Shown: positions 31,930 through 60,074 of the stretch, piece by piece
Layout: every line of letters begins with the position of its first letter
How positions within the stretch are numbered: position 1 is the first letter of the stretch
DNA from: Bacillota bacterium
GTDB taxonomy: Bacteria; Bacillota; Negativicutes; Sporomusales; Sporomusaceae
Assembly: GCA_023443285.1 (NCBI GenBank)
Contig: JAEZVB010000128.1
Location: 3,385 to 67,384 of the forward strand
DNA: 64,000 bases
Direction of reading: 5' to 3'
Made by a program: the position numbers and the translations under genes
Notes under the pieces: generated by a model
Seen by the model: the letters and a program-made list of their open reading frames with translations, nothing else
Told to the model about the DNA's origin: nothing
Databases searched by the model: none

Positions 31930-32059
31930 TAGTTTGTTTGGTAATGTGTCATGGGACGTTCTTCTGATCTCAAAATGGAATGAACTCACGAGTGCACAAT
32001 AATATGAGGGGCAAAAGCCGGCAAAAGGAAGCGAGGGGACGGTTCTTTGCTCCCTTGAT

Positions 32060-32582
32060 TATTGGCTTCAGCCAGTGGAGCGCGTGCCTTTTGCGCTCCA
32101 CAATAAACCACCCGCTATGCGGGTGCGGAAACAGAAGTTATACAAAAAATCACCTTATTCGGTATAATGTAGGTATGCTGGTGAGTATACCACCAAAGAT
32201 TAGCGTATCGGCATTTATGGGCTACCTGAAAGGGAAAAGTGCATTAATGATGTTTGATAAGCATGCAAATCTGAAGTACAAGTTTGGGAATAGGCATTTT
32301 TGGTCAGAAGGCTATTATGTAAGTACGGTAGGTCTTAATGAAGCAACAATAAAAAAGTATATTGAAGAGCAAAAAAAACATGACATAGTACTAGATAAAT
32401 TGAGTGTCAAAGAGTATGAGGACCCCTTTAAGGGGTAGCAGGTAATACAAAAACCCTTTTAAGGGTAGCAACGAGTCAAAGGTATTAAGGCTTGAACGAA
32501 GTGAAAGCCAGCGTCTTTAGGCGCTGGCCGGTAATTGCCCCTTATAGGGGCGAGCAAGCCACCCGTTTTACGGGTGATCCTG
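32060..32582 (+). mobile_element. decayed IS200/IS605-family element (truncated tnpA flanked by hairpins)
   Basis: Hairpins TGGAGCGC..GCGCTCCA and CACCCGC-TAT-GCGGGTG lie upstream (about 32084-32127). Hairpins CCCTTTTAAGGG, GCCAGCGTCTTTAGGCGCTGGC and CACCCGTTTTACGGGTG lie downstream. Boundaries are approximate. Confidence 0.55.
32175..32438 (+). pseudogene. tnpA: IS200-type Y1 transposase, C-terminal half only (HUH motif region missing)
   Basis: MLVSIPPKISVSAFMGYLKGKSALMMFDKHANLKYKFGNRHFWSEGYYVSTVG matches the C-terminal half of IS200 TnpA. The upstream 65 codons in the ORF track are unrelated sequence. Confidence 0.8.
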
Positions 32583-34394: not shown

Positions 34395-34446
34395 TATCTT
34401 AAAAGAATTATAGATAATGAGAATAGCAAATTGGGGGGATATTTCT

Positions 34447-35283
34447 TTGAAAAACGCAATTATTATATTTACGAAGGTGCCAAAGGTTGGGGAAAATAAG
34501 ACTCGGCTTACAACAGAACGCGGTGGCATTTTTACAGTGGAAGAAGCAGCGCAATTTTATGAAGCTTCCTTATTAGATGTGATCGAAAGCTGCATTGCTG
34601 CAAATTGCTGTGATGTTTATATTTGTATAAACCGGAATGGTAATAAGGACTATTTTAACAAAAGGATCGAGGCAGAATTTGGCAAAAACACGGTAAAAGA
34701 AATTTTTGCCGATAAAGGGCAATCGTTTGATCAAGGAATGCAATATGCAATCGATTACATATTTAAGGACAGAGCTGACCAAAGGTTAGCGGATAGTGCA
34801 TTTATCGTGGGTGGAGATACTCCGGCGCTTCAGCCTTCTACCATTCGTAAAGCAGTAAAGACGCTTGAGTTAATAGCAACTAGTGATGAAGCTTTCCAGT
34901 GTGCAAAACAGACCAAAATAGTAAATCCAACTATTGGCGCAGGAATAATAGAGTCTGTTGACCAAGAAGGCGGATTTAATCTAATTGGGTATACTTATTC
35001 CACGCCCTTTTCCTTTAATGGGGTTTTCTACAATTTAGACGGTGTGACTGCTTTGGATATGATTGCACGAAAAGCTGTGGAACGTGATATTCCAATGAAC
35101 TTGGTTGAAATGATTCCTGATATTGATTTGCCAGTAGATCTTGCCAGTTTGTTGCCTGTACTGAGCACTCTGCAGGTTGTAGGAAAATATGATTCTGATG
35201 TTAAGTTACCCACGCGGACAATAGAGTTTTTGGAAGAGATGGGCTTGCAAACATCTGCCCCGGTAACCGCAATTATTGATTAG
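34447..35283 (+). CDS. DUF2064 (TIGR04282-like, MobA-like GT-A fold) protein, paralogue 1
   Basis: Motifs AIIIFTKVPKVGENKTRL, GQSFDQGMQYA, VGGDTPALQ, EGGFNLIGY and DIDLPVDL are present. TTG start after GGGGGG aligns with paralogue 2; an alternative ATG at 34417 lacks an RBS. Confidence 0.7.
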   Translation: MKNAIIIFTKVPKVGENKTRLTTERGGIFTVEEAAQFYEASLLDVIESCIAANCCDVYICINRNGNKDYFNKRIEAEFGKNTVKEIFADKGQSFDQGMQYAIDYIFKDRADQRLADSAFIVGGDTPALQPSTIRKAVKTLELIATSDEAFQCAKQTKIVNPTIGAGIIESVDQEGGFNLIGYTYSTPFSFNGVFYNLDGVTALDMIARKAVERDIPMNLVEMIPDIDLPVDLASLLPVLSTLQVVGKYDSDVKLPTRTIEFLEEMGLQTSAPVTAIID

Positions 35284-37386: not shown

Positions 37387-39543
37387 GTGGCAGTTACACA
37401 TTACACGAATGCTAGTTCACCTTCAACAACGGAACAATCAGCTTTTAAAAAGGAACTATTATTTCAAGAGCGGTGGCAAGCTATCCTTAGGTGTAAGGAG
37501 GAGTTTTTACAGAATCAATTGGAGGATCCACACCAACATCCTTATATGGATCAGGATGTTGCTGCCTCTTGGATTAGGTCGCGTAATAGGGGGGTTAATC
37601 CTTATTCGGTTGCAACCGGAAGCCATGTAGACTTGCAACAATTATCGGGAATTTTTGAAAAAAACCATATGCTTATCGAGATCACTAGATCATTATCTCA
37701 GTCTTTTAAAGAAATGATTCTTGCATGCGGCTACATATTTTATTTGCTAGACAATAATGGTGTTATATTACTTCATGAGGGAAGTTTTGAGAATTTTAGC
37801 ACACTTCCTGAATACTATTCAAGGACAGGCGTTATTGCCAATGAAGAAGCGGAAGGCACAACTGCTCATGAATTGTGTCTGCGGCTTAAACGACCGGTAC
37901 AATTATTGGGGCCGGAACATTATTGTGTAGCATTTCAAAATAGTATTGCCACGGCTGCACCGATAAAAGACGACAGCGGTGACATCCAGGCGGCGTTAGT
38001 GTTAGTGAGCCAGCCGTTGCTTAACACTCCTGATGAAGATACCCTTAGAAGGATGGGAATGTATAGTTTGGGTTTGGTGACTTCTTTGGCAACCGCTGTA
38101 GAAACTCAGATTGAATTAAATAAAACAACAAAGAGCTTGGAGAGCGCAAAAAGAACGGCAGAAATGGCCAATAAAGAACTGCAAACCACCCGGGATAAGC
38201 TCATAGCTGTTCACAGCACGCTAAATGCAACTTCCGCGTTTATTGATGAGGGAATAATAATAGTGGACAAACATGGCTTTATTATGCATATTAATCCGGC
38301 CGGAATGCATATGCTGAAGTTAAGTCCGAAACAAACGCTTGACAGGAATATAAGTGAGTTTCTTGATCGTAATTCAAATGTAATGTCCATAGCTGAAAAG
38401 GGCGAGAATTTTACTCTTGAAGAAAAGTTATATGTTGGTGCCGATAAGTGGTTGTATCATCTGTCGGTTCGGCCGGTAATAAATCAGGATACCCAAGAAT
38501 TAGATTCAATTGTTTTGAAAATTAGTCCCAATGAAAAAGGTGCTGCTCAACAGAATAAAAAAATAAGCAATCCGGATGTATATACGTTTGAAGATATTGT
38601 AAGCGAAGATAAGGAGTTCAAAAAGAGTTTAGTATTGGCTCAGCGATTTGCCAGTTCACCGGAAAATATTTTAATAATAGGGGAAAGTGGTACAGGAAAA
38701 GAATTGTATGCGCAGGCTATTCATAATGTAAATCGACCGCAAGGACCATTTATGGCAGTGAATTGCGCGGCAATGCCCAAGGAGTTAATCGGCAGTGAAT
38801 TATTTGGTTATGAAGGTGGCAGTTTTACCGGAGCAGAACGGAACGGCAGACCTGGTAAAATTGAACTTGCTCACGGTGGTACACTTTTTCTTGATGAAAT
38901 TGGTGATATGCCGCTAGAACTTCAAGCTGTATTACTTCGTGCACTGGAAGATAAACAAATAATGCGTGTAGGCGGCAGTCGTTATAAAAAAGTAGACTTT
39001 AGATTAGTTGCTGCCACAAACAAAAACCTCTATAAAATGGTAAAGGAAAACTTATTTCGAGAAGATCTCTATTTTCGACTGTCTGTCCTAACCATTGATG
39101 TTCCTCCACTTAGGAATCGGGGTAATGATGTTTTGGTACTTAGTCAATATTTTATTGAAAAGTATTGCCAGAAATATGGTTGGAAGACACCGCAAATAAG
39201 TTCTGCCGCTCAGAAAAAAATTAGTGAATATGGCTGGCCAGGTAATGTGCGGCAACTCCAAAACGCGATAATCTATGCAGTCAATACTACCCAAGATGGC
39301 CTAATTAAGCCTGAAAATTTACCGAACTATATCATTCTCGAAACTTGTCCGGTAAAACTTGATGATAGTATTAATAATAAAGGTAATATCGGCGAGATGC
39401 TATGTTTGGAAAACCTTGAGAAAGCTGCCATAGAGACTGCCCTTGCGCATTCAAACAACTATGTACCCCAAGCAGCGGAAATTTTGGGGATTAGTCGGTC
39501 GACGCTATATCGAAAACTTAAGGATTATAATATCGAATATTAA
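37387..39543 (+). CDS. sigma-54-dependent transcriptional activator, AcoR-like (GAF-PAS-AAA+-HTH)
   Basis: GAF-like sensor (..EGTTAHELCL..GPEHYC..AAPIKDDSG), a PAS segment, an AAA+ core (GESGTGKE, GSFTGA (GAFTGA variant), LFLDEIGDMP) and a Fis-type HTH (AAEILGISRSTLYRKLK). Confidence 0.9.
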   Translation: MAVTHYTNASSPSTTEQSAFKKELLFQERWQAILRCKEEFLQNQLEDPHQHPYMDQDVAASWIRSRNRGVNPYSVATGSHVDLQQLSGIFEKNHMLIEITRSLSQSFKEMILACGYIFYLLDNNGVILLHEGSFENFSTLPEYYSRTGVIANEEAEGTTAHELCLRLKRPVQLLGPEHYCVAFQNSIATAAPIKDDSGDIQAALVLVSQPLLNTPDEDTLRRMGMYSLGLVTSLATAVETQIELNKTTKSLESAKRTAEMANKELQTTRDKLIAVHSTLNATSAFIDEGIIIVDKHGFIMHINPAGMHMLKLSPKQTLDRNISEFLDRNSNVMSIAEKGENFTLEEKLYVGADKWLYHLSVRPVINQDTQELDSIVLKISPNEKGAAQQNKKISNPDVYTFEDIVSEDKEFKKSLVLAQRFASSPENILIIGESGTGKELYAQAIHNVNRPQGPFMAVNCAAMPKELIGSELFGYEGGSFTGAERNGRPGKIELAHGGTLFLDEIGDMPLELQAVLLRALEDKQIMRVGGSRYKKVDFRLVAATNKNLYKMVKENLFREDLYFRLSVLTIDVPPLRNRGNDVLVLSQYFIEKYCQKYGWKTPQISSAAQKKISEYGWPGNVRQLQNAIIYAVNTTQDGLIKPENLPNYIILETCPVKLDDSINNKGNIGEMLCLENLEKAAIETALAHSNNYVPQAAEILGISRSTLYRKLKDYNIEY

Positions 39544-39825: not shown

Positions 39826-39841
39826 TGGCACGTTTGTTGCA
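39826..39841 (+). promoter_or_regulatory. sigma-54 (-24/-12) promoter
   Basis: TGGCAC-GTTTG-TTGCA, a perfect match to the TGGCAC-N5-TTGCA consensus. Confidence 0.75.
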
Positions 39842-39871: not shown

Positions 39872-40003
39872 ATGTCAGAAAACAAAACTACTGAAGAAAA
39901 ATCTCAACAGGCTCCAAAGGAGCAAACTGAAAAACCAAAAATCCCAGCATCAGCTCGTAAACCAGGACAGAACTATTCCAGTCCCAAATTTACGAAAAAC
40001 TAG
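39872..40003 (+). CDS. small hydrophilic peptide (43 aa)
   Basis: AAGGAGG RBS 7 nt before the ATG. Sequence is MSENKTTEEKSQQAPKEQTEKPKIPASARKPGQNYSSPKFTKN. The ORF-track entry 39825..40010 is in another frame without an RBS. Confidence 0.5.
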   Translation: MSENKTTEEKSQQAPKEQTEKPKIPASARKPGQNYSSPKFTKN

Positions 40004-40375: not shown

Positions 40376-40391
40376 TGGCATGCTTTATGCA
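40376..40391 (+). promoter_or_regulatory. sigma-54 (-24/-12) promoter
   Basis: TGGCAT-GCTTT-ATGCA with GG-N10-GC spacing, 190 nt upstream of the alpha-1 ATG. Confidence 0.6.
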
Positions 40392-40580: not shown

Positions 40581-42821
40581 ATGAAAAAAGAATGGATGGA
40601 AAAACACGCAGACGGTAGTTATACGGTTCGTACTTGTGGTTGGTCACCTCCTGGAGACCATCCGGTAGGCTGCGGTATGAAGCTTCATGTAAAAGATGGC
40701 AAACTTGTGAAAGTTGAGGGTGATCCTGAGCATCCAATCAGTCAAGGGCGTCTATGCGTACGCTGCTTGACTTTGCCGGAATTTGTGCATCATCCTGACC
40801 GTATTATTTACCCAATGAAGCGTGCGCCGGAAAATCGCGGCAAAGATAAGTGGGAGAAAATTACCTGGGATGAAGCCTATGATATCATCGTTGAGAAGGT
40901 AAATGGCTTTAAAAAGAATTACGGTGCTGAGTCTATCGTCGTATTCGGCGGAACTGGCCGGGAAGCATGCCTGTATTACTATCCGCTAGGTTTTTCCACA
41001 CTGCAAACTCCAAATGTATGCTATCCGCTGAGCGGCTGGTCCTGCTATGGCCCTCGCTGCGCTATCACTGACTATATCCTTGGTGCGGGCTATCCAGAGA
41101 TTGACTTTGCTGGCCATTACCCTGATCGGTATGATCATCCTGGATATACAGTTCCTAAATACCTGGTACTCTGGGGCAAAATGCCATTATGGTCGAATCC
41201 AGATGGATTCTATGGTCACTCCATCATTGATATGATGAAACGTGGCACTAAAATTATTTCCATCGACCCACGACTCAATTTCCTTTCTGCCCGGGCTGCT
41301 TACTGGATGCAATTACGTCCAGGAACTGACACTGCACTTGCACTTGGTTTCCTGAATGTAATCATCAATGAAGATCTCTATGATCATAAGTTTGTTGAAG
41401 ACTGGTGCTATGGCTTTGATGAGCTTAAAGAACGTGTTCAACAATATCCTGTAGAAAAAGTTGCTGAGATTACCGGCATACCGGCTGCAAAAATTATTGA
41501 ATGTGCGAGAGCTATGGCTACTGCCAAACCTACCGCTATTCAATGGGGTCTGGCTGTCGATGAAAATCCGAACGGTGTACAATTAGGTCATGCTATCCTT
41601 TCGCTCTCCGCCATTACCGGCAACCTCGACGTGCCTGGCGGCATTACCTTAGGGCCACCCGCTGCTCTTCTTGGCAAATGGCGTGTGGAAACTCGTTCGC
41701 AGATTTCCGAAGAGCTTTGGGACAAACGTATCGGCGCCAAAGAATGGCCTGCGCTTAGCACTGCCTTGGCGACTACCCACCCGGATGAGACTTTGGACAC
41801 CCTGGAATCAGGCAAGCCATACAAACTCAGAATGGGTTGGTTTAATAGTAGTAACTTTATTACTGCTACCAATTCGGCTGCGCCGCAAAGATGGTATGAG
41901 GCTCTTAAAACCTTGGAATTTAACGTTGTTCAAGATTGCTTCATGACCCCGACTGCAATGGCATTTGCTGATGTATTCCTGCCACTTCCGACGTTTGCTG
42001 AGCATGACGGTGTTGTACTGACTCACTTTGGTCGAAATGCTATCTTTGCAGGCGCAATGAATGAAGCATTCCGCGTTGGTGACACCAGGTCAGATATTGA
42101 AGTTTGTATCGAATTGGGCAAACGCCTCAATCCGGAAAACTGGCCGTGGGAAAATGTTCCCGACTTCTTCACTGATCAACTTAAACCAGAACTGGGTATT
42201 GATTTTGACGGCTTAAGAGAAGCCGGTGTATTCCAGCCTGGCTATGAGTACAGAAAACATGAGACTGGCAAATTGAGATTTGACGGTGAGCCTGGCTTTA
42301 ATACAGTAACAGGTAAAGTTGAACTTTATTCAACACTCTTTGAAGAATGGGGCGAAGATCCGCTTCCTTACTATAAAGAGCCACCATACAGCCCAGTAAG
42401 TACTCCTGAAATTGCGAAGGAATATCCATTGGTACTCACTACCGGTGCCAGAAAAACCACCTCTTTCCATTCAGAGCATAGACAAATTAAATCCTTGCGC
42501 GATATTGATCCAGATCCGATTTTGGAAATTAATCCAGAAACGGCTGCTAGCCTAGGCATTAAAGAAGGCGATTGGGTATATATTGAAAACCAATTTGGTA
42601 AGTGCAAAGAAAAAGCTCATTTAATGCCTGCTATGAAACCTGGTGTTGTTCATGCTACTCATGGCATGTGGTACCCAGAAGAAGAAGCCGAAGAACCAAG
42701 CCTGTATGGTGTATGGAAATCCAATATTAATACCTTGATCCCTCATAAGCACATTGGTAAACTTGGTTTCGGTGCGCCGTTCAAAGCTATTCTCTGCAAA
42801 GTATATAAGGCAGAAGACTAA
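40581..42821 (+). CDS. bis-PGD (DMSO reductase family) Mo/W oxidoreductase catalytic subunit, Tat-less (alpha-1)
   Basis: 746 aa. It has molybdopterin-oxidoreductase blocks (GDPEHPISQGRLC, IISIDPR, LRPGTD) and a C-terminal dinucleotide-binding barrel (TGKVELYS..EYPLVLTTG..SFHSEH). No twin-arginine signal is present, and the N-terminal Cys spacing is atypical. Confidence 0.85.
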   Translation: MKKEWMEKHADGSYTVRTCGWSPPGDHPVGCGMKLHVKDGKLVKVEGDPEHPISQGRLCVRCLTLPEFVHHPDRIIYPMKRAPENRGKDKWEKITWDEAYDIIVEKVNGFKKNYGAESIVVFGGTGREACLYYYPLGFSTLQTPNVCYPLSGWSCYGPRCAITDYILGAGYPEIDFAGHYPDRYDHPGYTVPKYLVLWGKMPLWSNPDGFYGHSIIDMMKRGTKIISIDPRLNFLSARAAYWMQLRPGTDTALALGFLNVIINEDLYDHKFVEDWCYGFDELKERVQQYPVEKVAEITGIPAAKIIECARAMATAKPTAIQWGLAVDENPNGVQLGHAILSLSAITGNLDVPGGITLGPPAALLGKWRVETRSQISEELWDKRIGAKEWPALSTALATTHPDETLDTLESGKPYKLRMGWFNSSNFITATNSAAPQRWYEALKTLEFNVVQDCFMTPTAMAFADVFLPLPTFAEHDGVVLTHFGRNAIFAGAMNEAFRVGDTRSDIEVCIELGKRLNPENWPWENVPDFFTDQLKPELGIDFDGLREAGVFQPGYEYRKHETGKLRFDGEPGFNTVTGKVELYSTLFEEWGEDPLPYYKEPPYSPVSTPEIAKEYPLVLTTGARKTTSFHSEHRQIKSLRDIDPDPILEINPETAASLGIKEGDWVYIENQFGKCKEKAHLMPAMKPGVVHATHGMWYPEEEAEEPSLYGVWKSNINTLIPHKHIGKLGFGAPFKAILCKVYKAED

Positions 42822-42849
42822 TACTAAAAATTCGAATGGAGGGATAAGG

Positions 42850-43185
42850 ATGTCTCGTAACGGTTTATTGATTGATTATGAATATTGTACAGGCTGCCAT
42901 AGCTGTGAAGTTTCTTGCAGAAATGAGAAAAACCTCCCTAAAGACAAATGGGGAATCAAAATGACTGAAGTAGGCCCGTTTAATGTAGAAGGCGATAAAT
43001 GGGAGTGGAACTTTGTTCCGGTTCCTACTCAACTTTGTGATTTGTGCGAAGACCGCGTGGCTAAAGGACAAAAACCAGCGTGTGCTCTTCATTGCTTGGG
43101 TCAATGTATGGAAGTTGGTCCTATTGAAGAACTGGCAAAGAAAGCTGAAGCAAAAGGTAAAAGCGTAGCTATATTTGTGCCTTAA
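42850..43185 (+). CDS. small 4Fe-4S ferredoxin-type subunit (beta-1, 111 aa)
   Basis: CTGCHSCEVSC and CDLCEDRVAKGQKPACALHC motifs are present. RBS GGAGGG. It is much shorter than DmsB-type four-cluster subunits. Confidence 0.8.
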   Translation: MSRNGLLIDYEYCTGCHSCEVSCRNEKNLPKDKWGIKMTEVGPFNVEGDKWEWNFVPVPTQLCDLCEDRVAKGQKPACALHCLGQCMEVGPIEELAKKAEAKGKSVAIFVP

Positions 43186-43423: not shown

Positions 43424-44818
43424 ATGGCGAGAAATTTTACCATTTCAGAAGTAATTGATTCTTTCGGGGTTAATAAATTTACTTGGTCTATCTTTTTCTT
43501 TCTTGGTATGGCGATGGTTTTTGATGGTTATGACTATATGGTTGTCTCTTATACGATGCCGCAAATTTCGGCGGAATGGGCGTTAAATAAAGTGCAAACC
43601 GGGAGTTTGTCTTCCTGGAGTCTCTTTGGTTTAATCCTGGGTGGAGGAATAGCTGGCATCATTTCCGACAAAATTGGCAGAAAAAAAACCTTGGTTTATT
43701 CGATTACCGCGTATTCGTTATTAACAATTCCCATCTACTTTGTCCATAGTTTTGAATGGTATGCATTTTTTCGGGTATTGACAGGAGTGGGGCTAGGTGC
43801 CTGCATTCCGGTTGTTACAACGATGTTTTCGGAGACCACGCCAACAAACCGTCGTGCTTTATTTATAACCTTTGGTATGGCCTGGATGATTGTTGGCTGG
43901 GTGTTAGGCGGTCTTATACCCACATTTGTTGTTCCTTTATACGGGTGGAGACTGTGTTATCTAATAGGCGGAATCCCTTTTTTATATGCTGTTTTCCTAC
44001 ATTTCCAAATGCGCGAATCGGCGCATTGGTTGGCCAATAAAGGCCGTAAGGAAGAAGCTGTAAAGGTTCTTCAAGATATTGAAAGAATCGCCACTGGAAA
44101 AACTACTGAGTGGGATCCTAATGCCTTAATTGTCCCGCAAAAATCTAAGGTCGTTGGTCCTAAAGCCATCTTTTCTAAAGACTACAGGCTGGCAACTGCC
44201 GGTATTTGGCTTACCTATTTTTGCGGGTGCTTTATAGTATATGGTATCAATGCATGGCTGCCTTCTCTGATGTTGGAAAAGGGGTTAAAATTATCATCTG
44301 CTTATGGACTCGCAATAGCCAATAATGCTGCCGCAATACTTGCCAATGCTTCGACTGGTTTTGCTGCTGAAATCATTGGGCGCAGGAAAAACCTTATTGG
44401 CAGTTTTTTTATTGCTGGAGCTGCTATTTTGATTATGGCTTATGTTCCAAGTAATTTTGCAGCCATTTTGGCGGCCAATATCTTTATGGGGTTTGCAATT
44501 AACTATGCAATTACTGCTGTACAACCGTTAATGGCCGAGAGTTATCCAACAGAGTTTAGAAATACAGGGGTAGCCTGGTGTCAGGCCTTCGGACGCTTGG
44601 GCGGGGCGCTAGCGCCGATTGTGGCCGGAATGATAATGGCCATGAATCTTGGCCCGCAGATGTCTTTTTTGTTTTATATCATACCGGCCCTGGTAGGCGG
44701 GTTAGCCGCTTATCTATTTGTTAAAAAAGAGACTAAGGGAAAATCCTTGGATCAACTTGCCGCCGAACAACAAACTGCAAAAATTAGTATGAAACGCGTT
44801 TGCGGCGAGGGTGAATGA
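43424..44818 (+). CDS. MFS transporter, aromatic acid:H+ symporter (AAHS)-like
   Basis: 464 aa. It has DGYD near TM1 and GRKK after TM2/3, 12 TM segments and a long central loop, as in PcaK/BenK-type carriers. Confidence 0.7.
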   Translation: MARNFTISEVIDSFGVNKFTWSIFFFLGMAMVFDGYDYMVVSYTMPQISAEWALNKVQTGSLSSWSLFGLILGGGIAGIISDKIGRKKTLVYSITAYSLLTIPIYFVHSFEWYAFFRVLTGVGLGACIPVVTTMFSETTPTNRRALFITFGMAWMIVGWVLGGLIPTFVVPLYGWRLCYLIGGIPFLYAVFLHFQMRESAHWLANKGRKEEAVKVLQDIERIATGKTTEWDPNALIVPQKSKVVGPKAIFSKDYRLATAGIWLTYFCGCFIVYGINAWLPSLMLEKGLKLSSAYGLAIANNAAAILANASTGFAAEIIGRRKNLIGSFFIAGAAILIMAYVPSNFAAILAANIFMGFAINYAITAVQPLMAESYPTEFRNTGVAWCQAFGRLGGALAPIVAGMIMAMNLGPQMSFLFYIIPALVGGLAAYLFVKKETKGKSLDQLAAEQQTAKISMKRVCGEGE

Positions 44819-45309: not shown

Positions 45310-45325
45310 TGGCATAATTAATGCA
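45310..45325 (+). promoter_or_regulatory. sigma-54 (-24/-12) promoter
   Basis: TGGCAT-AATTA-ATGCA with GG-N10-GC spacing. Confidence 0.6.
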
Positions 45326-45391: not shown

Positions 45392-45532
45392 ATGTGTTTT
45401 AGACCAGCATCCTTATCTAAGCCAGTAGTTTGCCCAAACTGTGGCAAAAAGGTCGCAGCAATGGCAGGTATTAAACAAAAAGCTTGTCCTTTTTGTAAAA
45501 CCGAATTACCAAAAGATGAAGAAAAGAAATAA
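45392..45532 (+). CDS. small zinc-ribbon peptide (46 aa)
   Basis: AAGGAGG RBS. Sequence is MCFRPASLSKPVVCPNCGKKVAAMAGIKQKACPFCKTELPKDEEKK (CxxC-N16-CxxC). Confidence 0.55.
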   Translation: MCFRPASLSKPVVCPNCGKKVAAMAGIKQKACPFCKTELPKDEEKK

Positions 45533-45740: not shown

Positions 45741-46985
45741 GTGTCAGAACAAAAATATAATCGTTGGCTGATTCTTGTTGCTGCGGTCTTAATTAACATT
45801 TGTATCGGTACCTTATATGCATGGAGTGTATTTGCTTTGCCGCTGGGAAAAACATTTGGCTGGGCTGCAACCTCCATTGCGTTGGCGTTTACAATCAACC
45901 ATGCCTTAAGTCCGGTCGCTATGATTGGCGGGGGTTACATACAAGACCGTTTAGGGGCAAAAGCGAATATAATTATTGGTGGAACTATGTTTGGCGTGGG
46001 GTTGTTTTTAACTGGGTTTGTATCCAGTGTAGAAATGCTTTACATTACCTACAGTGTACTTGCCGGAATTGGCGGTGGGTGTGTATATTCAGGAACACTT
46101 GGCAATACTGTAAAGTTTTTTCCTGATAAGCGAGGTCTAGCTGCAGGAATTGTTGCAGCTGGCTATGGTTCTGGTGCTACCATTGTCGCTCCAATTGCTA
46201 GCAAACTAATTGTTAGTTATGGTGTTTTAACTACTTTTCAGATACTTGGTGGAGTATTTTTAGTTGTTATCATGTTATGTTCATTAATAATTAAGAGAGC
46301 ACCGGCTGATTTCAAACCCGAAGGTTGGAATCCGCCTGTTGCAGTTAACGCTCCTAAGCCGGTAGCTTGTGATGTGGTCTGGACTCAAATGCTCAGGGAT
46401 ACTACCTGGTGGGTTGTGCTGGTTATGCTTACCTGTGGTGCTTTATCAGGTCTGATGATTACTGCCTTTGCCTCCCCAATTGGGCAGCAGATGTTTAAAT
46501 TGAGTCCTATGGATGCAGCGCTTTTTGTCAGTTTAGTTGCCGTATCTAATTCGTTGGGACGGATTATTTTTGGGGCCATATCAGATAAAATTGGTCGCTC
46601 AAATACAATTATGATTATGTATGTCATTTCGGCCTTAGGTATGTTAAACCTTACGTTTACAACCTCTGTAGCTGGTTTTGCTGTTTCTGGCGTTTGTGTT
46701 GGCGCAGTTTTTGGCGGTTTCATGAGTACAATGCCATCCATTATCAGTGAACGGTATGGGCTGAAAAATTTTGGAGTAAATTATGGAATTACCTTTGTCG
46801 GGTTTAGTTTAGCCGCGATCTTTGGCCCAATGACGGCTGCTACTGTAAGGCAGTCTACCGGAAATTTTGAACAGGCGTTTTGGATTGCGCTGGGAATAAA
46901 TATAGTAGGACTTGTTTTCGCCTTTGTGTTTAGAACACTGGATAAGCGGAGCAAAATGACAGTTAAAGCAAATATTACGCAATAA
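45741..46985 (+). CDS. MFS transporter, oxalate/formate antiporter (OFA) family-like
   Basis: N-terminus NRWLILVAAVLINICIGTLYAWSVF is characteristic of OFA-family carriers. It has 12 TM segments and a GTG start after AAGGAAGGGG. Confidence 0.75.
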   Translation: MSEQKYNRWLILVAAVLINICIGTLYAWSVFALPLGKTFGWAATSIALAFTINHALSPVAMIGGGYIQDRLGAKANIIIGGTMFGVGLFLTGFVSSVEMLYITYSVLAGIGGGCVYSGTLGNTVKFFPDKRGLAAGIVAAGYGSGATIVAPIASKLIVSYGVLTTFQILGGVFLVVIMLCSLIIKRAPADFKPEGWNPPVAVNAPKPVACDVVWTQMLRDTTWWVVLVMLTCGALSGLMITAFASPIGQQMFKLSPMDAALFVSLVAVSNSLGRIIFGAISDKIGRSNTIMIMYVISALGMLNLTFTTSVAGFAVSGVCVGAVFGGFMSTMPSIISERYGLKNFGVNYGITFVGFSLAAIFGPMTAATVRQSTGNFEQAFWIALGINIVGLVFAFVFRTLDKRSKMTVKANITQ

Positions 46986-49564: not shown

Positions 49565-50392
49565 ATGCGCAATGCAATAGTCGTATTTACTAAAGTACCT
49601 AAGGCTGGGGAAACCAAAACCCGGCTTACTACAGATCGGGACGGAATCTTAACTCCGGAAGAAGCTATGGCTTTTTATGAAGGCTGCCTGCTTGACGTGA
49701 TTAATGTTTGCATCGAAGCAAACTGTGGCGATATCCGGATTTGTTACAATCATGACGGCGACCGTGAATGCCTGGAAAAACTGCTTTCTAGGGTGTGTGA
49801 CCGCGCACAGATTAAGGAAGTTTACCCAGACCAAGGCGGCAATTTTGACCAATGTATGCAGTATGCTGCTGATTATATTTTGAAAAACGGAGCTTCTGAC
49901 CGCTTGGCAGATAGCGTTATTATTGTCGGTGGTGATCTGCCAAGTTTACAGCCGAATATTATACAAGATGCTGTTTGTAAGCTGGAGCTGCTGGCAGCAA
50001 GTGAAAATGGTCTAAAAATTGCTAAGAAGCTGTCAGGTGTACCCAAGGATTTGGGCGCAGCCTTAGTGGAAGGTGCCTGTCAGGAAGGTGGGTTTTCAGT
50101 AGTTGGCTTTACCTGTACTACGCCTTTTGATTTCAACCGGGTATTTTATAATTCTGACGGGATAACCGCGCTGGATATGTTGGTAACTAAAGCAGTACAG
50201 GAAGATATACCGTTTGGTGTCGTTGAAGCTGCGTCTGACGTAGATATTCCAGTTGACTTAGCGAGTATGATACCGATTGTCAGGGCATTGGAATTAGCGG
50301 CGCGTTGCGACAAAAGCATTAAGATACCGGTAAACACCATTGCGGTTTTAAATGAACTTGGATTGGAATCCACGGCAGTTAAACACCGTTAA
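49565..50392 (+). CDS. DUF2064 (TIGR04282-like, MobA-like GT-A fold) protein, paralogue 2
   Basis: Motifs AIVVFTKVPKAGETKTRL, GGNFDQCMQYA, VGGDLPSLQ, EGGFSVVGF and DVDIPVDL are present. By eye it is roughly half identical to 34447..35283. Confidence 0.75.
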   Translation: MRNAIVVFTKVPKAGETKTRLTTDRDGILTPEEAMAFYEGCLLDVINVCIEANCGDIRICYNHDGDRECLEKLLSRVCDRAQIKEVYPDQGGNFDQCMQYAADYILKNGASDRLADSVIIVGGDLPSLQPNIIQDAVCKLELLAASENGLKIAKKLSGVPKDLGAALVEGACQEGGFSVVGFTCTTPFDFNRVFYNSDGITALDMLVTKAVQEDIPFGVVEAASDVDIPVDLASMIPIVRALELAARCDKSIKIPVNTIAVLNELGLESTAVKHR

Positions 50393-52541: not shown

Positions 52542-54740
52542 ATGAGTGAAGAAGTAAAAAAGGCGGCATGTCACTTCTGTCATATGAACTGTGGCATGCT
52601 GGCAACAGTCGAAAATGGAGTGGTAACAAAGGTTGTGGGAGACCCGGAACATCCCTTTAATATGGGGGCGCAATGTCCGAGGGGTGCTTCGGCCTTAGAT
52701 CACCTCAACCACCCTAACCGGATTAACTATCCGCTTAAACGGGTAGGCGAACGCGGATCAGGTGAATTTAAACGCGTATCGTGGGAAGAAGCATTGGATG
52801 ATATTGCAGCACGGTTAACTGCGTTAAAAGAACAATATGGTGCTGAAACCATTGCTACTACCGGTGGAACGAACCGGACTGACGATTTTGCCCGGAGACG
52901 TTTCTTTAACCTTTTGGGTAGTCCTAATGTTATTCACACAGCTCCTGTGTGCTGGATTCCTACCTTTCTCACTGAGGCAGCTTCCTACGGTTGGGTTGCT
53001 TCTGAACCTGAACTTGCTGGAGCAAAATGTGTCGTCCTTTGGGGACACAACGCGGGGTCTTCTTATTTGCCGGAAATGCGCGGAGTGTTAGCAGCTAAAG
53101 CCAACGGAACCAAAATTATCGCTGTTGATCCTAACTTTACAGAGACGGCTTCGAAAGCTGATGTTTGGTTATCATTAAAACCAGGTTCAGACAACGCTCT
53201 GGCGCTTGCCTGGTTGAACGTTATTATTAGCGAAGGTTTATACGACTTTAATTTCGTTGACGAATGGACAGTAGGCTTTGAAGAATTAGCGGAAAGGGTA
53301 GAGGAGTATACTCCTGAGTGGGCAGCTGAAAAAACCGGCCTGTCTCCGGAATTAATTGCTGAGACTGCCAGAATGTACGCAATGAGCAAGCCGGCTTGTA
53401 TCGTCTGGGGTGTTGCAGCTGATCAATTAGGCAGAGGTAGTGCTGCTTCCGCTCAAGCACGTGCAGCACTGCGGATTATCTGTGGTAACTTAGATGTTCC
53501 GGGCGGCGATGTTATGCCAGGACCTCACCCGACCTTTGTTACAGACTGGGAAATGGAATTAAACGATATGCTGCCGGAAGAGCAGCGGGCGAAACAAATC
53601 GGGTCAGATCGGTTTAAACTGAATTCTTGGCCAGGCTATAAAATACTAACCGAAAATATGTTGAAGGTTTGGGGGAAAAGTATCCCGGCAGAATGGTTCT
53701 GTGAAGCCAATCCTTCGATGTTGTTCAGAGCCATGGCAACAGGTGATCCGTATCCAATAAAAGCTTGTATTACCTTGGCGAATAATCCGCTCGTATCGTA
53801 TGCTAACTCCAAAATGGTTTATGAAGGACTAAAAAATCTTGATTTATATGTTGCAATGGAATATTGGATGACACCATCGGCACTCTTGGCTGACTATGTT
53901 TTACCAGCTGCCGGCTGGTTGGAAAGACCAGTTATGACAACTACGTATGGGGTTTCTGATTGGCTAATTGCCTCCGAGAAAGCAATTGAACCATTATTTG
54001 AGCGTAAGACTGACATAGAGTTATGGTCTGAGCTTGGGCATAGAATGGGGCAAGCGGAACATTGGCCATGGAAAACAGATGAAGAGATATTTAAAGAACG
54101 CCTTGATCCGATCGGTTTAGAAACTGACAGCTATGAAGAATTTGTGCAGCTTTATAGAATGCATTTTGCTGATCGTGATTATCGTAAATTCGAGACTCGC
54201 GGGGTGGCTACACCTTCAGGCAAAATCGAATTAAAAATTTCTACCTTTGAACAACTTGGTTATGATCCATTGCCTCATTATGTTGAACCGCCGTTTAGTG
54301 CCGAAACCAAGCCGGATTTAGCCGAACAATATCCGTTAAGTCTTGTTGCCGGTGGCGGATTTATGCCGTTCTTCCATTCGGAACATCGGGAAATAACAAG
54401 AATCAGGCTGCTAAGGCCGTATCCCCGGGTTGCCATTAATCCGGAGCTTGCCAAAAAGATGGATATCAAGGAAGGTGAATGGCTTTGGATTGAAACGCCA
54501 ACCGGCAAGGTTAAGCAGACAGCCTTTATTACTCCGGCCGTAGCTCCTGATGTAATTCAGGCAGAACGTGGCTGGTGGTTCCCTGAAAAAGAAATGAAGG
54601 CTCCGAGCTTAATGGGCGTATTTGAATCTAATATTAATGTTTGCATAGATGATGATCCGGATACTTTGGATGAGCTTTGCGGCAGCTTTTGCGCTCGAGG
54701 CGTTATGTGCCGGATTTCGAAAGTGGAGGGGAACGACTAA
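52542..54740 (+). CDS. bis-PGD (DMSO reductase family) Mo/W oxidoreductase catalytic subunit, Tat-less (alpha-2)
   Basis: 732 aa with the canonical N-terminal CHFCHMNCG...C [4Fe-4S] motif, GDPEHPFNMG, IIAVDPN and LKPGSD. The C-terminal barrel has SGKIELK..QYPLSLVAG..FFHSEH. No RR signal is present. It is a paralogue of alpha-1. Confidence 0.9.
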   Translation: MSEEVKKAACHFCHMNCGMLATVENGVVTKVVGDPEHPFNMGAQCPRGASALDHLNHPNRINYPLKRVGERGSGEFKRVSWEEALDDIAARLTALKEQYGAETIATTGGTNRTDDFARRRFFNLLGSPNVIHTAPVCWIPTFLTEAASYGWVASEPELAGAKCVVLWGHNAGSSYLPEMRGVLAAKANGTKIIAVDPNFTETASKADVWLSLKPGSDNALALAWLNVIISEGLYDFNFVDEWTVGFEELAERVEEYTPEWAAEKTGLSPELIAETARMYAMSKPACIVWGVAADQLGRGSAASAQARAALRIICGNLDVPGGDVMPGPHPTFVTDWEMELNDMLPEEQRAKQIGSDRFKLNSWPGYKILTENMLKVWGKSIPAEWFCEANPSMLFRAMATGDPYPIKACITLANNPLVSYANSKMVYEGLKNLDLYVAMEYWMTPSALLADYVLPAAGWLERPVMTTTYGVSDWLIASEKAIEPLFERKTDIELWSELGHRMGQAEHWPWKTDEEIFKERLDPIGLETDSYEEFVQLYRMHFADRDYRKFETRGVATPSGKIELKISTFEQLGYDPLPHYVEPPFSAETKPDLAEQYPLSLVAGGGFMPFFHSEHREITRIRLLRPYPRVAINPELAKKMDIKEGEWLWIETPTGKVKQTAFITPAVAPDVIQAERGWWFPEKEMKAPSLMGVFESNINVCIDDDPDTLDELCGSFCARGVMCRISKVEGND

Positions 54741-55282
54741 TGCACTGGGGAATGCTGATTGACTTAAGAAAATGTGCCGGCTGTTATGCCTGCACGATTG
54801 CATGCCAAAATGAAAACGAATTACCTTTTGATATGAAATACTGCAAAGTTGCCAAAGTGGGGCCAATTGGGGAGTTCCCGAATTTAACTTCCTATAATAT
54901 TACGCTAGGGTGTATGCATTGCCAAGATGCTCCCTGTGTTGACGGCTGTCCTACTGGGGCAAGTTACCACCGGGAAGACGGTATTGTGACAATTGATCCG
55001 GAGAAATGCGTAGGTTGTCAATTCTGTATGGTAGTTTGCCCATATGGTGTGCGGCAAATGAATAAAGAAAATGGAGTCGTTGAAAAATGCTCGATGTGCT
55101 TCAATCGCTTAGAAGAGGGTATGGTTACACGGTGTGTAGAAACCTGCCAGTTAAAGGCAAGGCATGTCGGTGATCTGGATGATCCTGACAGTGAGATTGT
55201 TAAACTGATACGGAAGCATAATGCACAGCCATTGTACCCGCATTTAGGAACAAAACCATCAGTTTACTATATCATGCCTTAG
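54740..55282 (+). CDS. four-cluster 4Fe-4S ferredoxin subunit (DmsB/PsrB-like, beta-2)
   Basis: TAATG overlap with alpha-2. Motifs CAGCYACTIAC, CMHCQDAPCVDGCP, CVGCQFCMVVCP and CSMC...C are present. Confidence 0.9.
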   Translation: MHWGMLIDLRKCAGCYACTIACQNENELPFDMKYCKVAKVGPIGEFPNLTSYNITLGCMHCQDAPCVDGCPTGASYHREDGIVTIDPEKCVGCQFCMVVCPYGVRQMNKENGVVEKCSMCFNRLEEGMVTRCVETCQLKARHVGDLDDPDSEIVKLIRKHNAQPLYPHLGTKPSVYYIMP

Positions 55283-55293
55283 GAGGGATTAGA

Positions 55294-56262
55294 ATGGAAA
55301 AACAGCAAGAATATTGGGGAAGTCAACCGGCGTGGTATTTCTTTCTAGCCGCAATGGGAGCAATGATGTTTGTTATTGCTGCGGTAGCAGATTTGCTAGG
55401 AAACCCAATAGCCGGACAAATTAATGGCTGGGTTAGTATTGTGGCCTTGGCTGCAGCCGGAATCGGCGCGTTGTTACTGTTAGAAGAATTAACACATAAA
55501 AGCAAGGGGCATTTGGTGAATGCGCGTCCTTTTGCTTCGGTTATGAGTTTTGGTTCTCTCGTACAGAGTTTGTATATGCCGTTGGTTTTTGTATATGGTA
55601 CGTTTTTCTTTGATTTTATTCCTTGGGCTGGATTGGGCTGGCTCAAGATGATTGTCGCGGTTCTGGCTATCATTGCGGCGCTGCTCTATGTTACCTACCC
55701 GGGCGTAGAGTTGGGCGAAGCAAGAGGCAGAGGTTTCTGGAACGGTGGCGGTCTGATTGGCGTTTTCTTAATTAACGGGGCTGTAACCGGAGCTGCCGCA
55801 TTAACTCTTATCTTGTGTGTACTTGGTTATAGTGAAAGTGCTTATACGATTACGATTAAGAATATAGCGGCCGCTTTGTTAGTAGCGCAGCTCTTCGCTA
55901 TACCTGGCTATGTATTAGGAATGAAGCTGTCACCAGCCGAAGAAGCACGTCGGGGAGCCAATAAATTGTGGAGTGGCGAGTTTAGTTCCTCTTTTTGGGC
56001 TGGAACCGTTATCTTCGGAACGTTAGTACCAATGATTATTACCTTGTTATTTACTTCTATTTATTGGCTGGTTATAGCAGCCGTACTGGTTCTTGTTGGC
56101 GGGGTCTGCTTCAGAATTGATTTCTTAAGAGCTGCCGTAAGAGTGACTTTGCCTGGTGAAGAAAAGGCTGAAATGAGCAGAAAAGAAATTGCTAGTCTAG
56201 CTGCCGTATTGGAAAATCGCTGGCAGGAAAAGGCTAGAGTATTAAACCCACAAAATAAGTAG
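55294..56262 (+). CDS. NrfD/PsrC-like integral membrane quinone-interacting subunit (gamma-2)
   Basis: 322 aa with about 8 TM helices. It directly follows the alpha-beta pair, as in PsrABC/DmsABC-type operons. Confidence 0.75.
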   Translation: MEKQQEYWGSQPAWYFFLAAMGAMMFVIAAVADLLGNPIAGQINGWVSIVALAAAGIGALLLLEELTHKSKGHLVNARPFASVMSFGSLVQSLYMPLVFVYGTFFFDFIPWAGLGWLKMIVAVLAIIAALLYVTYPGVELGEARGRGFWNGGGLIGVFLINGAVTGAAALTLILCVLGYSESAYTITIKNIAAALLVAQLFAIPGYVLGMKLSPAEEARRGANKLWSGEFSSSFWAGTVIFGTLVPMIITLLFTSIYWLVIAAVLVLVGGVCFRIDFLRAAVRVTLPGEEKAEMSRKEIASLAAVLENRWQEKARVLNPQNK

Positions 56263-56271
56263 AGGTACACG

Positions 56272-56736
56272 ATGAACGAGATAACCTTTGCTACTAGTGA
56301 AGATGAAGAAGAATTACAGGATTTATTTACAACTTACGGCATGGGTCTTGCCGGCGATATTGAGGAACATGTACTAGTAAAGGCAGATAATAAGGTGTTG
56401 GCTGGGGCGATGTTATCTCAAATTGATTCGAACTTCTTTCATTTGTTAGTATTTGCCGTGAGAGAAGACGAGCGTAACAGCGGGAGTGGCAGTCAATTGC
56501 TGCAAGAACTGCTTAGAGAACCTGAAAAGTATTGTCGAACTCCATTTGACCACACGGACAGCTCTTATAAGGTTACAACAGTTGCCAAAGGTGATGCTGC
56601 CCGTTTTTATGAAAAAAATGGATTTATCGCCTGTGCTTTTACTGAACTAGTTGAGCCTTATGATGAACAATGTGTGGAATGTCCTGATAAAGCAGATTGT
56701 AAACCTGTCGCCATGATGATTACTTGTCATAAATAA
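56272..56736 (+). CDS. GNAT-family N-acetyltransferase
   Basis: 154 aa with ..R..G.GS.LL.. (ERNSGSGSQLLQELL) and the FYEKNGF motif. Confidence 0.7.
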   Translation: MNEITFATSEDEEELQDLFTTYGMGLAGDIEEHVLVKADNKVLAGAMLSQIDSNFFHLLVFAVREDERNSGSGSQLLQELLREPEKYCRTPFDHTDSSYKVTTVAKGDAARFYEKNGFIACAFTELVEPYDEQCVECPDKADCKPVAMMITCHK

Positions 56737-56772
56737 CCTGATAGGAATAGGTACAAAGAGGAGAGAACTGAC

Positions 56773-57561
56773 GTGGAAGCAACTTTTTTATTACTAGGGA
56801 CTGGTGCAGGTCCTGGCTTACCTTCCTTCTTCTGTGATTGCGTGGGATGCCAGGAAGCCAGAAGTAATCCTGAGTTAGCCAGAACACGCAGTGGAGCATT
56901 CATCGACACGGGTAATAGCAAGATTCTTATTGATGCTTCTCCTGATTTACGCCGTCAGCTTATCAGAGAAAACATTACCCAAGTTGACAGTATATTTATG
57001 ACTCATTGGCATTATGATCATTTTGGCGGACTGGGAGAACTTGAATATTATATTAAATTATCAAGAAATGTATCAATCAATCTATTTTTACCGCCAAGTG
57101 CCGTACCGCAGTTTAGCGATGCTTTTCCTAACCTGAGGGAAGTTTTTGTGGTTAAAGCATGGGAATTTGGCGAGAAATATTGTTTGGATGAAGTACAGTT
57201 GACTCCTTTGCCGGCAAATCATGGGATAGAAACGGCGGGATTTTTGTTGGAAACACCGGGTAATAAGCTGGCTTATTACCCGGATACCGCCGGACTTCCT
57301 GAAGCTAGCGCGGCGATGGTGCGCGGGGTTGATTGGTTAATCTGTGATGCGACTTTCCACGGCGAAAACTGGTTTCCGCACGCTCATATGTCCCTTGAAC
57401 AGGCAATTGAGCTTGGCAGGCAAATCGGAGCTAAAAAAACAGTGTTGACTCATTTGGCTATTCATTATAGTCAACCCGTAACTACCTCTCAGCTTGCTGA
57501 AGAAGTAGCCCGACATGAGAACGCTTGTGTCGCTTATGACGGAATGCGTATTAAGCTGTAA
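56773..57561 (+). CDS. MBL-fold metallohydrolase, PhnP/PqqB-like
   Basis: LLLGTGAGPGLPSFFCDCVGCQEAR N-terminal Cys motif and THWHYDHFGG (HxHxDH). Confidence 0.75.
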   Translation: MEATFLLLGTGAGPGLPSFFCDCVGCQEARSNPELARTRSGAFIDTGNSKILIDASPDLRRQLIRENITQVDSIFMTHWHYDHFGGLGELEYYIKLSRNVSINLFLPPSAVPQFSDAFPNLREVFVVKAWEFGEKYCLDEVQLTPLPANHGIETAGFLLETPGNKLAYYPDTAGLPEASAAMVRGVDWLICDATFHGENWFPHAHMSLEQAIELGRQIGAKKTVLTHLAIHYSQPVTTSQLAEEVARHENACVAYDGMRIKL

Positions 57562-58369: not shown

Positions 58370-58389
58370 ATAAAAATATAATAACTGGA

Positions 58390-58508
58390 AACTGGCACTC
58401 CGGAACTGCAAGACCTAAAGTTATCCATGGTCTGGCAGTCTGAACTAGTGGTTCACGGGGTAGCGAAAGAAATTTTGCTATCTCCCAATCTTGGGAAGGA
58501 GGCGCTTC
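58390..58508 (+). ncRNA. probable Moco (molybdenum/tungsten cofactor) riboswitch aptamer
   Basis: Structured leader before moaA with CACUCCGG near the 5' end, internal hairpins (GGUCUGGCAG.., UAGCGAAAG..GCUA) and a 3' UCUCCCAAUCUUGGGAAGGAGG element. It was recognised from memory of the Moco motif and not scored with a covariance model. Confidence 0.5.
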
Positions 58509-58523
58509 ATGAGTTTGAACAAT

Positions 58524-59593: not shown

Positions 59594-59594
59594 A

Positions 59595-60074
59595 ATGGAA
59601 TTTACACATTTCAATAAGGCCGGTTATGCTTGCATGGTGGATGTCAGTGAAAAAAATGATACAGTACGCACTGCAATAGCCCAGGCGGTTATTCATATGC
59701 AACCAGCAACCTTGCAGGCGATAAAGAGTGGCGGTATAAAAAAAGGTGATGTTTTGGGAGTAGCACAGGTAGCCGGTATTATGGGAGCAAAACAAACGTC
59801 CGGTCTTATTCCCATGTGTCATCCCCTAATGTTGACTTCTGTAGATATTGAGTTTGAACTAGACGAAACGAATTCTAAGATAATTATCCGTTGTCAGGTT
59901 AAAACGACAGGGAAAACCGGCGTGGAAATGGAGGCTGTCAGTGGTGTTAGTGTAGCCGCTATGACAATTTACGATATGAGCAAAGCTGTTGATCGCTGGA
60001 TGAAAATCACAGATATTCAGCTAATGGAAAAAATGGGCGGCAAAAGCGGTCATGTTAAGCGACCGGCAGAGTGA
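59595..60074 (+). CDS. moaC: cyclic pyranopterin monophosphate synthase MoaC
   Basis: 159 aa with MVDVSEK, KGDVLGVAQVAGIMGAK.T..LIPMCHPL, TGKTGVEMEA and TIYDM.KA. Confidence 0.95.
   Translation: MEFTHFNKAGYACMVDVSEKNDTVRTAIAQAVIHMQPATLQAIKSGGIKKGDVLGVAQVAGIMGAKQTSGLIPMCHPLMLTSVDIEFELDETNSKIIIRCQVKTTGKTGVEMEAVSGVSVAAMTIYDMSKAVDRWMKITDIQLMEKMGGKSGHVKRPAE

Follow-up and report, generated by a model that had tools for sequence, protein, structure and literature searches.

What kind of reaction should be expected of a molybdenum- or tungsten-dependent (Mo/W) enzyme whose catalytic subunit lacks the usual spacing of N-terminal cysteines and whose partner is a miniature ferredoxin? The question is raised by two adjacent genes, alpha-1 and beta-1 (positions 40581-42821 and 42850-43185, both on the + strand), found in a stretch of 64,000 nucleotides (nt) from a member of the Sporomusaceae (contig JAEZVB010000128.1 of assembly GCA_023443285.1), to which, at its full length, we refer as the window. 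Alpha-1 encodes a bis-molybdopterin guanine dinucleotide (bis-MGD) catalytic subunit of 746 amino acids (aa) without a signal peptide, and beta-1 a ferredoxin of 111 aa. In our opinion the two proteins probably form a soluble cytoplasmic heterodimer, which belongs to the Gordonibacter-type catechol dehydroxylase family of the DMSO-reductase superfamily. This type has been defined by the lack of a signal for twin-arginine translocation (Tat), a smaller alpha subunit, a small 4Fe-4S partner, neighbours from the MFS transporter superfamily and predicted solubility (PMC7028382; PMC11887054), and the alpha-1 locus fits every feature of that definition.

The closest comparison is offered by the dodh cluster of Gordonibacter pamelaeae, which encodes the dehydroxylase acting on DOPAC (3,4-dihydroxyphenylacetic acid), and in which we located Dodh by its published N-terminus. 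The proteins of the window are identical to their counterparts from that cluster in 43% of positions for alpha (full length, 759 columns), 50% for beta and 48% for the MFS transporter, while the identity of alpha-1 to Cldh/(-)-Eddh is 46%. As the characterised Gordonibacter-type members are mutually 33-74% identical, alpha-1 falls within the range of the family. It scores 575 bits against Dodh and 317 bits against acetylene hydratase, its best relative of solved structure (PDB 2e7z, E-value 2.3e-93). In a maximum-likelihood tree of 85 sequences, calculated with FastTree, the ancestor common to alpha-1, Dodh and Cldh has a support of 1.0 and comprises 68 tips, none of which carries the canonical N-terminal motif and nearly all of which carry a non-canonical one. 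The representatives with the canonical CxxCxxxC fall outside this clade, as does alpha-2, a second catalytic subunit encoded in the window (52542-54740), which has the canonical motif CHFCHMNCG...C and is followed by a Fer4_11 beta subunit and an NrfD anchor; its paralogy to alpha-1, proposed earlier from the sequence alone, is borne out by 34% identity (E-value 2e-132). The eLife paper on this family had already pointed out homologues from anaerobes of the environment, Desulfitobacterium and Geobacter among them, and the alpha-1 locus is therefore a fresh member of an established enzyme class. The nearest Gordonibacter paralogue, the uncharacterised C1877_12885 (DMP12_03580), is 61% identical to alpha-1 and is among the homologues of catechol dehydroxylases that the authors list; we found no mention of either identifier in the literature, hence no clue to the substrate from there.

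The Dodh system and ours have in common a Tat-less alpha subunit (about 750-790 aa), a two-cluster partner (about 111-121 aa), the lack of an anchor, an adjacent MFS gene, the SCY.PR sequence around the predicted metal-ligand cysteine and the N-terminal signature W-x-x-P-G-x-H...GC...LC.RC. They differ in the host (a Sporomusa-like acetogen in the case of the window, gut Coriobacteriia in the case of Dodh), in copy number (a single copy versus about 35 paralogues per Gordonibacter genome), in the exact set of cysteines, as discussed below, and in the presence at the window locus of an additional small gene for a peptide with the KPGQNY motif. On the other hand, the Eggerthella-type enzymes (Dadh, Cadh and Hcdh), which belong to the same superfamily and presumably to the same reaction class, are equipped with a Tat signal and a membrane anchor and combine an alpha subunit of about 1000-1170 aa with a four-cluster beta, none of which is found in the alpha-1 system, and are only about 16-23% identical to the Gordonibacter-type enzymes.

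The gene structure agrees with this assignment. The start of alpha-1 is preceded by GGTGAGG, and the reading frame remains open for only nine codons 5' of the ATG (755 versus 746 aa), which leaves no room for a hidden CxxCxxxC motif or a twin-arginine signal, either of which the original prediction had named as able to overturn it; the N-terminus itself, MKKEWMEKHADGSY, contains no RR. No gene of the NrfD/DmsC type follows the pair, in keeping with the earlier claim that the unit has neither a membrane subunit nor a Tat signal. Beta-1 starts 28 nt after alpha-1, from an ATG at 42850 that lies inside a longer open reading frame (ORF) listed with a TTG start. It contains eight conserved cysteines (C13/C16/C19/C23 and C63/C66/C78/C82), which are predicted to bind two [4Fe-4S] clusters. 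Aligned with solved structures, it covers residues 6-32 and 136-177 of FdhB, i.e. Cys groups I and IV, and misses about 100 residues with groups II and III; by this alignment, beta-1 is a four-cluster FdhB/DmsB-type protein without its middle part, just as it had been described from the sequence. A beta of about 111 aa directly follows alpha in 79 of the 79 related loci that we fetched, and each of the eight cysteines is kept in 108-115 of 117 betas. A model of alpha-1 and beta-1 with three 4Fe-4S clusters reached an ipSAE of 0.94, versus 0.02 for the best control (the mark used was attained by 58 of 80 solved complexes and by 2 of 110 mismatched pairs), with at least 91% of contacts common to the runs and a partner pLDDT (predicted local distance difference test) of at least 91. 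The modelled interface brings alpha residues 44-49 and 55-64 against beta residues 12-25 and 80-86, the latter including the C13/C16/C19/C82 cluster site, although such a result may stem from the likeness of the pair to solved alpha-beta complexes.

The gene downstream of beta-1 (43424-44818, + strand) encodes an MFS protein, for which an aromatic-acid type had been proposed; the proposal holds, with the aromatic acid/H+ symporters of TIGR00895 as the best family (E-value 5.8e-86) and a match to PcaK (E-value 1.1e-57). Its 48% identical counterpart in the dodh cluster corresponds, by gene order, to C1877_13890, which is induced by DOPAC (PMC7028382). Taken together, the lack of a Tat signal, the lack of an anchor and the adjacent transporter support the earlier suggestion that alpha-1/beta-1 would be a soluble cytoplasmic enzyme acting on an imported aromatic acid.

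Several observations weigh against this interpretation. The scores of the MFS protein with TIGR00895 and PcaK are below the curated NCBIfam cut-offs. The characterised relatives of alpha-1 are just 43-46% identical in a family of strict and divergent substrate specificity, so that the reaction class is an extrapolation and the substrate a guess. A 2024 review calls the Fe-S motif absent from the catalytic subunits of Gordonibacter (PMC11574389). The locus appears to be under sigma-54 control, as described below, in contrast to the LuxR-type substrate-specific induction reported for Coriobacteriia; the latter, however, is probably not a defining feature of the Gordonibacter type. Finally, the AlphaFold2 model of alpha-1, built from an alignment of 14 rows, has a mean pLDDT of 63, with residues 18-31 below 50, and is too poor for fold search or geometry.

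The first of the alternatives is that alpha-1 belongs to the same family and yet is not a catechol dehydroxylase, but performs some other two-electron reaction on an imported organic acid, such as a non-catechol dehydroxylation or a reverse ring hydroxylation. This would be compatible with the moderate identity to the characterised members, with the statement of the eLife authors that the activities of most clades are not assignable, and with the existence of the corticoid dehydroxylase, a family member whose substrates lack the catechol moiety (review: PMC11574389). Furthermore, alpha-1 falls into an environmental subclade (support 0.96) with members from Sporomusa, Peptococcaceae, Desulfosporosinus, Desulfitobacterium, Syntrophomonas, Acidobacteriota and Desulfuromonadota; those from Bacillota, Desulfuromonadota and Acidobacteriota are 72-93% identical, a sign of lateral spread and of a single conserved substrate, which may be of that other kind. 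On the other hand, all the Gordonibacter-type enzymes assayed so far (Dodh, (-)-Eddh, (+)-Eldh1/2, Gs Vadh, Gp Hcdh and Eadh1/2) are catechol or phenol dehydroxylases, and the transporter linked to alpha-1 is of the aromatic-acid type and resembles that of the dodh cluster. We therefore regard a different reaction as an unlikely alternative, albeit the most serious one, to catechol dehydroxylation.

The second alternative concerns FS0, the [4Fe-4S] cluster of the alpha N-terminus. The relevant region (residues 17-64, encoded at 40629-40772, + strand) comprises R17, C19, W21-S-P-P-G25, D26, H27, C31, C59, R61 and C62, and reads VRTC19GWSPPGD26H27PVGC31G...GRLC59VRC62L, i.e. C-x11-C-x27-C-x2-C, exactly the spacing reported for alpha-1 in the original prediction, which concluded that FS0 was either differently ligated or lost. 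According to that second possibility, the N-terminal cysteines would be structural, Zn-binding or mere relics, and electrons would pass from beta directly to the pterin. The canonical C-x2-C-x3-C is indeed gone, the Pfam domain Molybdop_Fe4S4 covers only residues 29-71 of alpha-1 (the remaining matches being to Molybdopterin and Molydop_binding), the review cited above states that the motif is absent, and there is a clade of Coriobacteriia that persists without all of these cysteines.

Nonetheless, several observations argue against such a loss. Comparison of the family with canonical N-termini by hhalign (probability 100%, E-value 4e-48) places D26, C31 and C59 on the canonical cysteines CB, CC and CD, and H27 on CB+1; G20 matches CA, with C19 one residue before it, R61 corresponds to the conserved Lys/Arg, and C62 (CD+3), an extra cysteine, to the Gly of the C-x-K-G motif. 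Every high-scoring representative at 50% clustering with an intact N-terminus has the WSPPG-like loop (mostly W-[ST]-x-P-G-[CD]-H) with [C/D]H, followed by ...GC...LC.RC, while the lower-scoring representatives switch to the canonical motif. When cysteines were counted at six sites (19, 20, 26, 31, 59 and 62) in 211 distinct full N-termini, the distribution was bimodal, with four or more in 182 sequences, one or none in 24, and three in only 5. Cysteines also appear to replace one another: where C19 is present, position 26 is Asp/Glu (123 sequences) or Cys (about 36), where C19 is absent, position 26 is Cys (23 sequences, of the Dodh and Cldh kind), and the two are missing together solely where the whole site has decayed; likewise, the sequences with Ala instead of C62 carry Cys at position 20. 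In the Coriobacteriia clade of Cys-less alphas (RSNTWSPPGSHPVGYG...RVNAMN), the adjoining betas lack seven of the eight cluster cysteines; the Cys-less alphas pair only with betas of this kind, and no other type of alpha does so. In the model of the complex, the cluster site of beta docks on the C59/C62 loop.

On the grounds of this bimodality, the compensating swaps, the hhalign mapping, the joint loss with the beta cysteines and the modelled interface, we favour an FS0 cluster that is kept in alpha-1 with a shifted set of ligands, and consider its loss improbable, somewhat more so than a change of reaction. Of the two possibilities raised originally, differently ligated or lost, it is thus the former that gains support. 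Asp26 may be a ligand or else a neighbour of the cluster; two sequences with just three cysteines plus Asp26 hint that the Asp may be able to act as a ligand. The motif of alpha-1 is not singular, as had been implied, but represents a variety of a pattern common to the whole family, including purified and characterised enzymes. An identical spacing in a characterised enzyme, which was to count against the original prediction, was encountered only to a degree: there is agreement in the family and in the CxxC tail but not in the exact C-x11-C form, for which Dodh and Cldh/(-)-Eddh have a sister form, [S/T]-x6-C-x3-C-x27-C-x2-C, with Ser/Thr at position 19 and Cys at position 26 (C-x3-C) in place of C19 and Asp26 (C-x6-D-x4-C). 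This analysis offers a testable correction to the published view that the Gordonibacter-type alpha has no Fe-S site, and names the residues to be addressed: C19/C26, C31, C59 and C62 as candidate FS0 ligands, C155 as the metal ligand and His27 as a candidate catalytic residue.

The metal ligand was previously sought in C147 (TPNVCYPL), which is replaced by Ser in Dodh. C155 (GWSCYGPR; codon 41043-41045, + strand) aligns with Cys141, the tungsten ligand of acetylene hydratase, and is invariant in the family alignment A1, its counterpart in Dodh being found in DSCYQPR; it is therefore likely that C155, and not C147, binds Mo or W. Alpha-1 has molybdopterin and MGD-binding domains, and the two metals are not distinguishable from the sequence. 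His27, present in 208 of the 211 sequences, the Cys-less clade included, is located at CB+1, where acetylene hydratase has its catalytic Asp13, and by this analogy may serve as a proton donor. As for the Cys-less clade (loci L088, L089 and L036; Coriobacteriales proteins P0098 and P0102-P0123; C1877_07565 in G. pamelaeae), whose beta reads FNACF.AES, it still has the metal-ligand region in addition to His27, and may represent a non-redox offshoot of the dehydroxylases.

Two further readings assign alpha-1 to other known systems. A cytoplasmic reductase of an inorganic sulfur, selenium or arsenic compound, similar to Psr, Phs or Arr, could be envisaged from the partial NCBIfam matches to PhsA (E-value 5.8e-78), DmsA/YnfE and ArrA, and from the thiosulfate reductase structure 2vpw, second among the PDB matches. 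However, all these family matches are far below the cut-offs, there is no Tat signal or NrfD anchor, beta has two clusters instead of four, and the linked transporters are MFS types for organic acids. A better candidate for such a function is the neighbouring alpha-2/beta-2/NrfD unit (52542-56262), which is related to alpha-1/beta-1 by its paralogous alpha and by beta Cys groups I and IV, but differs by the canonical CxxCxxxC, a beta of about 200 aa with the Fer4_11 dicluster domain and the NrfD anchor; we hold a function of this kind for alpha-1 to be very improbable. Still more improbable is a non-redox hydratase, since, notwithstanding that acetylene hydratase of Pelobacter acetylenicus is the top solved relative and shares with alpha-1 the fold family, the Cys metal ligand and the cytoplasmic location without a signal peptide, it is a tungsten-dependent monomer that is not known to have a partner subunit, with a canonical FS0 motif (C-x2-C-x3-C-x29-C) and Asp at CB+1, whereas alpha-1 has rearranged cysteines, a conserved His at CB+1, a two-cluster electron-transfer subunit linked to it at all loci, and a much better score with Dodh. 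The pyrogallol-phloroglucinol transhydroxylase (PDB 4v4c), which also uses bis-MGD on a phenolic ring as a soluble alpha-beta dimer, is remote in sequence (E-value 2.6e-12) and falls into another clade of the superfamily; its alpha is not known to contain an FS0 cluster, while three clusters reside in its beta.

For a catechol dehydroxylase of the Gordonibacter type, the following scheme may be proposed. Our analysis shows the membership in the family, the architecture of the subunits, the conserved gene module, the covarying cysteines and the sites for sigma-54, whereas we infer the reaction with its substrate and electron donor, the metal and the ligands. The sigma-54 activator encoded upstream would sense the substrate and switch on the operon, and the MFS protein would bring in a catechol-type aromatic acid. 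Electrons would flow from a cytoplasmic donor, expected for this type of enzyme to be of low potential, to beta-1, across its two [4Fe-4S] clusters, then to FS0 in the alpha N-terminus, ligated by C19, C31, C59 and C62 with Asp26 at the lost CB position, and finally to the Mo(W)-bis-MGD centre held by C155, where a ring hydroxyl would leave as water: Ar(OH)2 + 2e- + 2H+ -> ArOH + H2O. The type of the transporter and its resemblance to that of the dodh cluster point to an aromatic carboxylic acid as the substrate. Sporomusa O-demethylates vanillate to protocatechuate. In an acetogen that removes the methyl groups of methoxylated lignin monomers, protocatechuate, hydrocaffeate/caffeate or DOPAC would be the most plausible substrates, and the alpha-1 enzyme would act as an electron sink. 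In vanillate-fed enrichments from paddy soil, composed mostly of Sporomusa and Peptococcaceae, protocatechuate is converted to 3-hydroxybenzoate by dehydroxylation (PMC4585845), with the regiochemistry typical of the Gordonibacter-type enzymes, which makes protocatechuate the first candidate, although this analogy provides a working hypothesis and the choice is a guess.

It is tempting to go further and to consider the whole environmental subclade as a dehydroxylase for free protocatechuate or another lignin-derived catechol acid, built as a three-part unit of alpha, two-cluster beta and the KPGQNY peptide, in which FS0 has exchanged the CB cysteine for Asp and acquired a new Cys at CD+3. We put forward this combination tentatively, as one that is unlikely to be right in all its parts. 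If true, acetogens and Peptococcaceae could dispose of electrons on the catechols that their own O-demethylation yields, and the protocatechuate-to-3-hydroxybenzoate step observed in methanogenic paddy soil would have an explanation.

The candidate third component is a hydrophilic peptide of 43 aa (39872-40003, + strand), encoded behind a sigma-54 promoter at 39826. Its KPGQ[NM]Y motif recurs in 10 of the 79 related loci, all within the environmental subclade and always beside alpha-beta, as part of peptides of about 43-65 aa with the consensus P-x-x-P-[LS]-A-x-[KR]-KPGQ[NM]Y. The peptide is encoded 5' of alpha in Sporomusa, and 3' of beta in Desulfuromonadota and Selenomonadales; in one metagenome-assembled genome of Acidobacteriota the beta C-terminus carries it as an in-frame fusion (L025:8475-9056). 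Further copies are found at L023:9264-9416, L124:5001-5183 and L126:5001-5156, the last two on independent metagenome contigs with the order alpha-beta-peptide. The 23 homologues found in the database are all hypothetical proteins, with zero Pfam families among them. The peptide may act in assembly or as a third subunit and, fused to beta in one case, possibly represents an unrecognised subunit. Together with the non-canonical FS0 and the assignment of C155 and His27, this conserved small peptide goes beyond the literature that we consulted on the family.

Another small ORF (45392-45532, + strand) encodes a peptide of 46 aa with a CxxC...CxxC zinc ribbon, matched weakly by zinc-ribbon families in Pfam. 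It precedes a second MFS transporter, of the oxalate/formate-antiporter or lactate-transporter (OFA) type (45741-46985, + strand; NF049980, E-value 4.7e-136; TIGR00890, E-value 6.3e-81). The zinc-ribbon peptide is 60% identical to its counterpart at the equivalent position of the metagenome locus L126 (5282-5416), which has the same gene order and repeats the list of parts that this peptide and the OFA-type MFS complete. In four other loci, OFA-type transporters with 66-84% identity lie behind alpha-beta, adjoining it in L030 and separated from it by about 0.8-1 kb in L007, L009 and L024. A relationship of the zinc-ribbon peptide to the small zinc-ribbon ORF encoded between beta and the MFS gene of the dodh cluster (L120:6811-7044) was considered and rejected (E-value 0.33, insignificant).

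As regards regulation, a sigma-54 enhancer-binding activator with an N-terminal sensor region, PAS, AAA+ and HTH_8 domains is encoded at 37387-39543 (+ strand; Pfam: Sigma54_activat, E-value 1.8e-63, PAS_9 and HTH_8), and is the likely regulator of the operon. Its homologues, 54-68% identical, are encoded beside alpha-beta in loci of Sporomusa, Peptococcaceae, Desulfosporosinus and Desulfitobacterium, and also in the metagenome locus L124. The -24/-12 pattern TGGCAYN6TGCW has 7 matches in the window versus 0.94 expected, a number reached by none of 100 shuffled sequences. The 1-kb leader of alpha-1 contains two of them, namely TGGCACGTTTGTTGCA (39826-39841, + strand), ahead of the ORF for the KPGQNY peptide, and TGGCATGCTTTATGCA (40376-40391, + strand), 205 nt before the alpha-1 ATG; TGGCATAATTAATGCA (45310-45325, + strand) precedes the second transporter. 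At least 15 Bacillota loci from the alpha-1 subclade have a sigma-54 site 140-235 nt 5' of alpha, and none of the Coriobacteriia loci does. The leader contains no riboswitch recognizable by Rfam. The inverted repeat GTCTCA-N3-TGAGAC was tried as a possible site for the activator and gained no support at this operon (with up to 2 mismatches, 3 matches versus 1.24 expected, none in the leader), and scans for sigma-70 promoters and terminators revealed no enrichment over shuffled sequences.

Catechol dehydroxylases have so far been studied nearly only in gut Coriobacteriia, and the alpha-1 locus provides a clean example from an acetogen, with a single copy and sigma-54 control. In a search of 5.8 billion proteins, close homologues (61-96% identity) were found in Sporomusa, Peptococcaceae, Desulfitobacterium hafniense, Geobacter, Moorella, Gordonibacter and other Coriobacteriales. 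The apparent transfer of the subclade across anaerobic phyla of soil and sediment offers a handle on the roles of these enzymes outside the gut, e.g. in anaerobic turnover of lignin monomers. Of 15 further genomes from the genus to which the window belongs, 10 contain orthologues with 81-98% identity, while the genome of the window itself has one copy of the family, plus alpha-2 and more distant paralogues. In some genomes of this genus (G003, G009 and G017) the dehydroxylase family has expanded on a smaller scale, with up to 6-7 members at 47-50% identity in these acetogens; for each of the two Gordonibacter genomes examined (G001 and G002), alpha-1 gives about 35 matches with E <= 1e-60, including a few fragments of one gene.

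Genes of Mo/W enzymes, placed under sigma-54 promoters, make up an island that spans the window from 34 to 63 kb. Genes of the DUF2064 family (TIGR04282-like) at 34417-35283 and 49565-50392 lie behind such promoters at 34379 and 49439, respectively. In L124 the alpha-beta-peptide unit is flanked by a DUF2064 gene (L124:1-848), a GNAT gene and a metallo-beta-lactamase gene, and the same companions occur at 56272-57561 of the window. The only Rfam match in the window, a molybdenum cofactor (Moco) riboswitch (RF01055, 65 bits; 58386-58517), precedes an operon (58613-63377) with moaA, moaC, mog/moaB, a gene for a MOSC protein and two MoeA-type genes. On the opposite side, about 5 kb upstream of the island, there is an IS200/Y1-transposase-like ORF (31980-32438).

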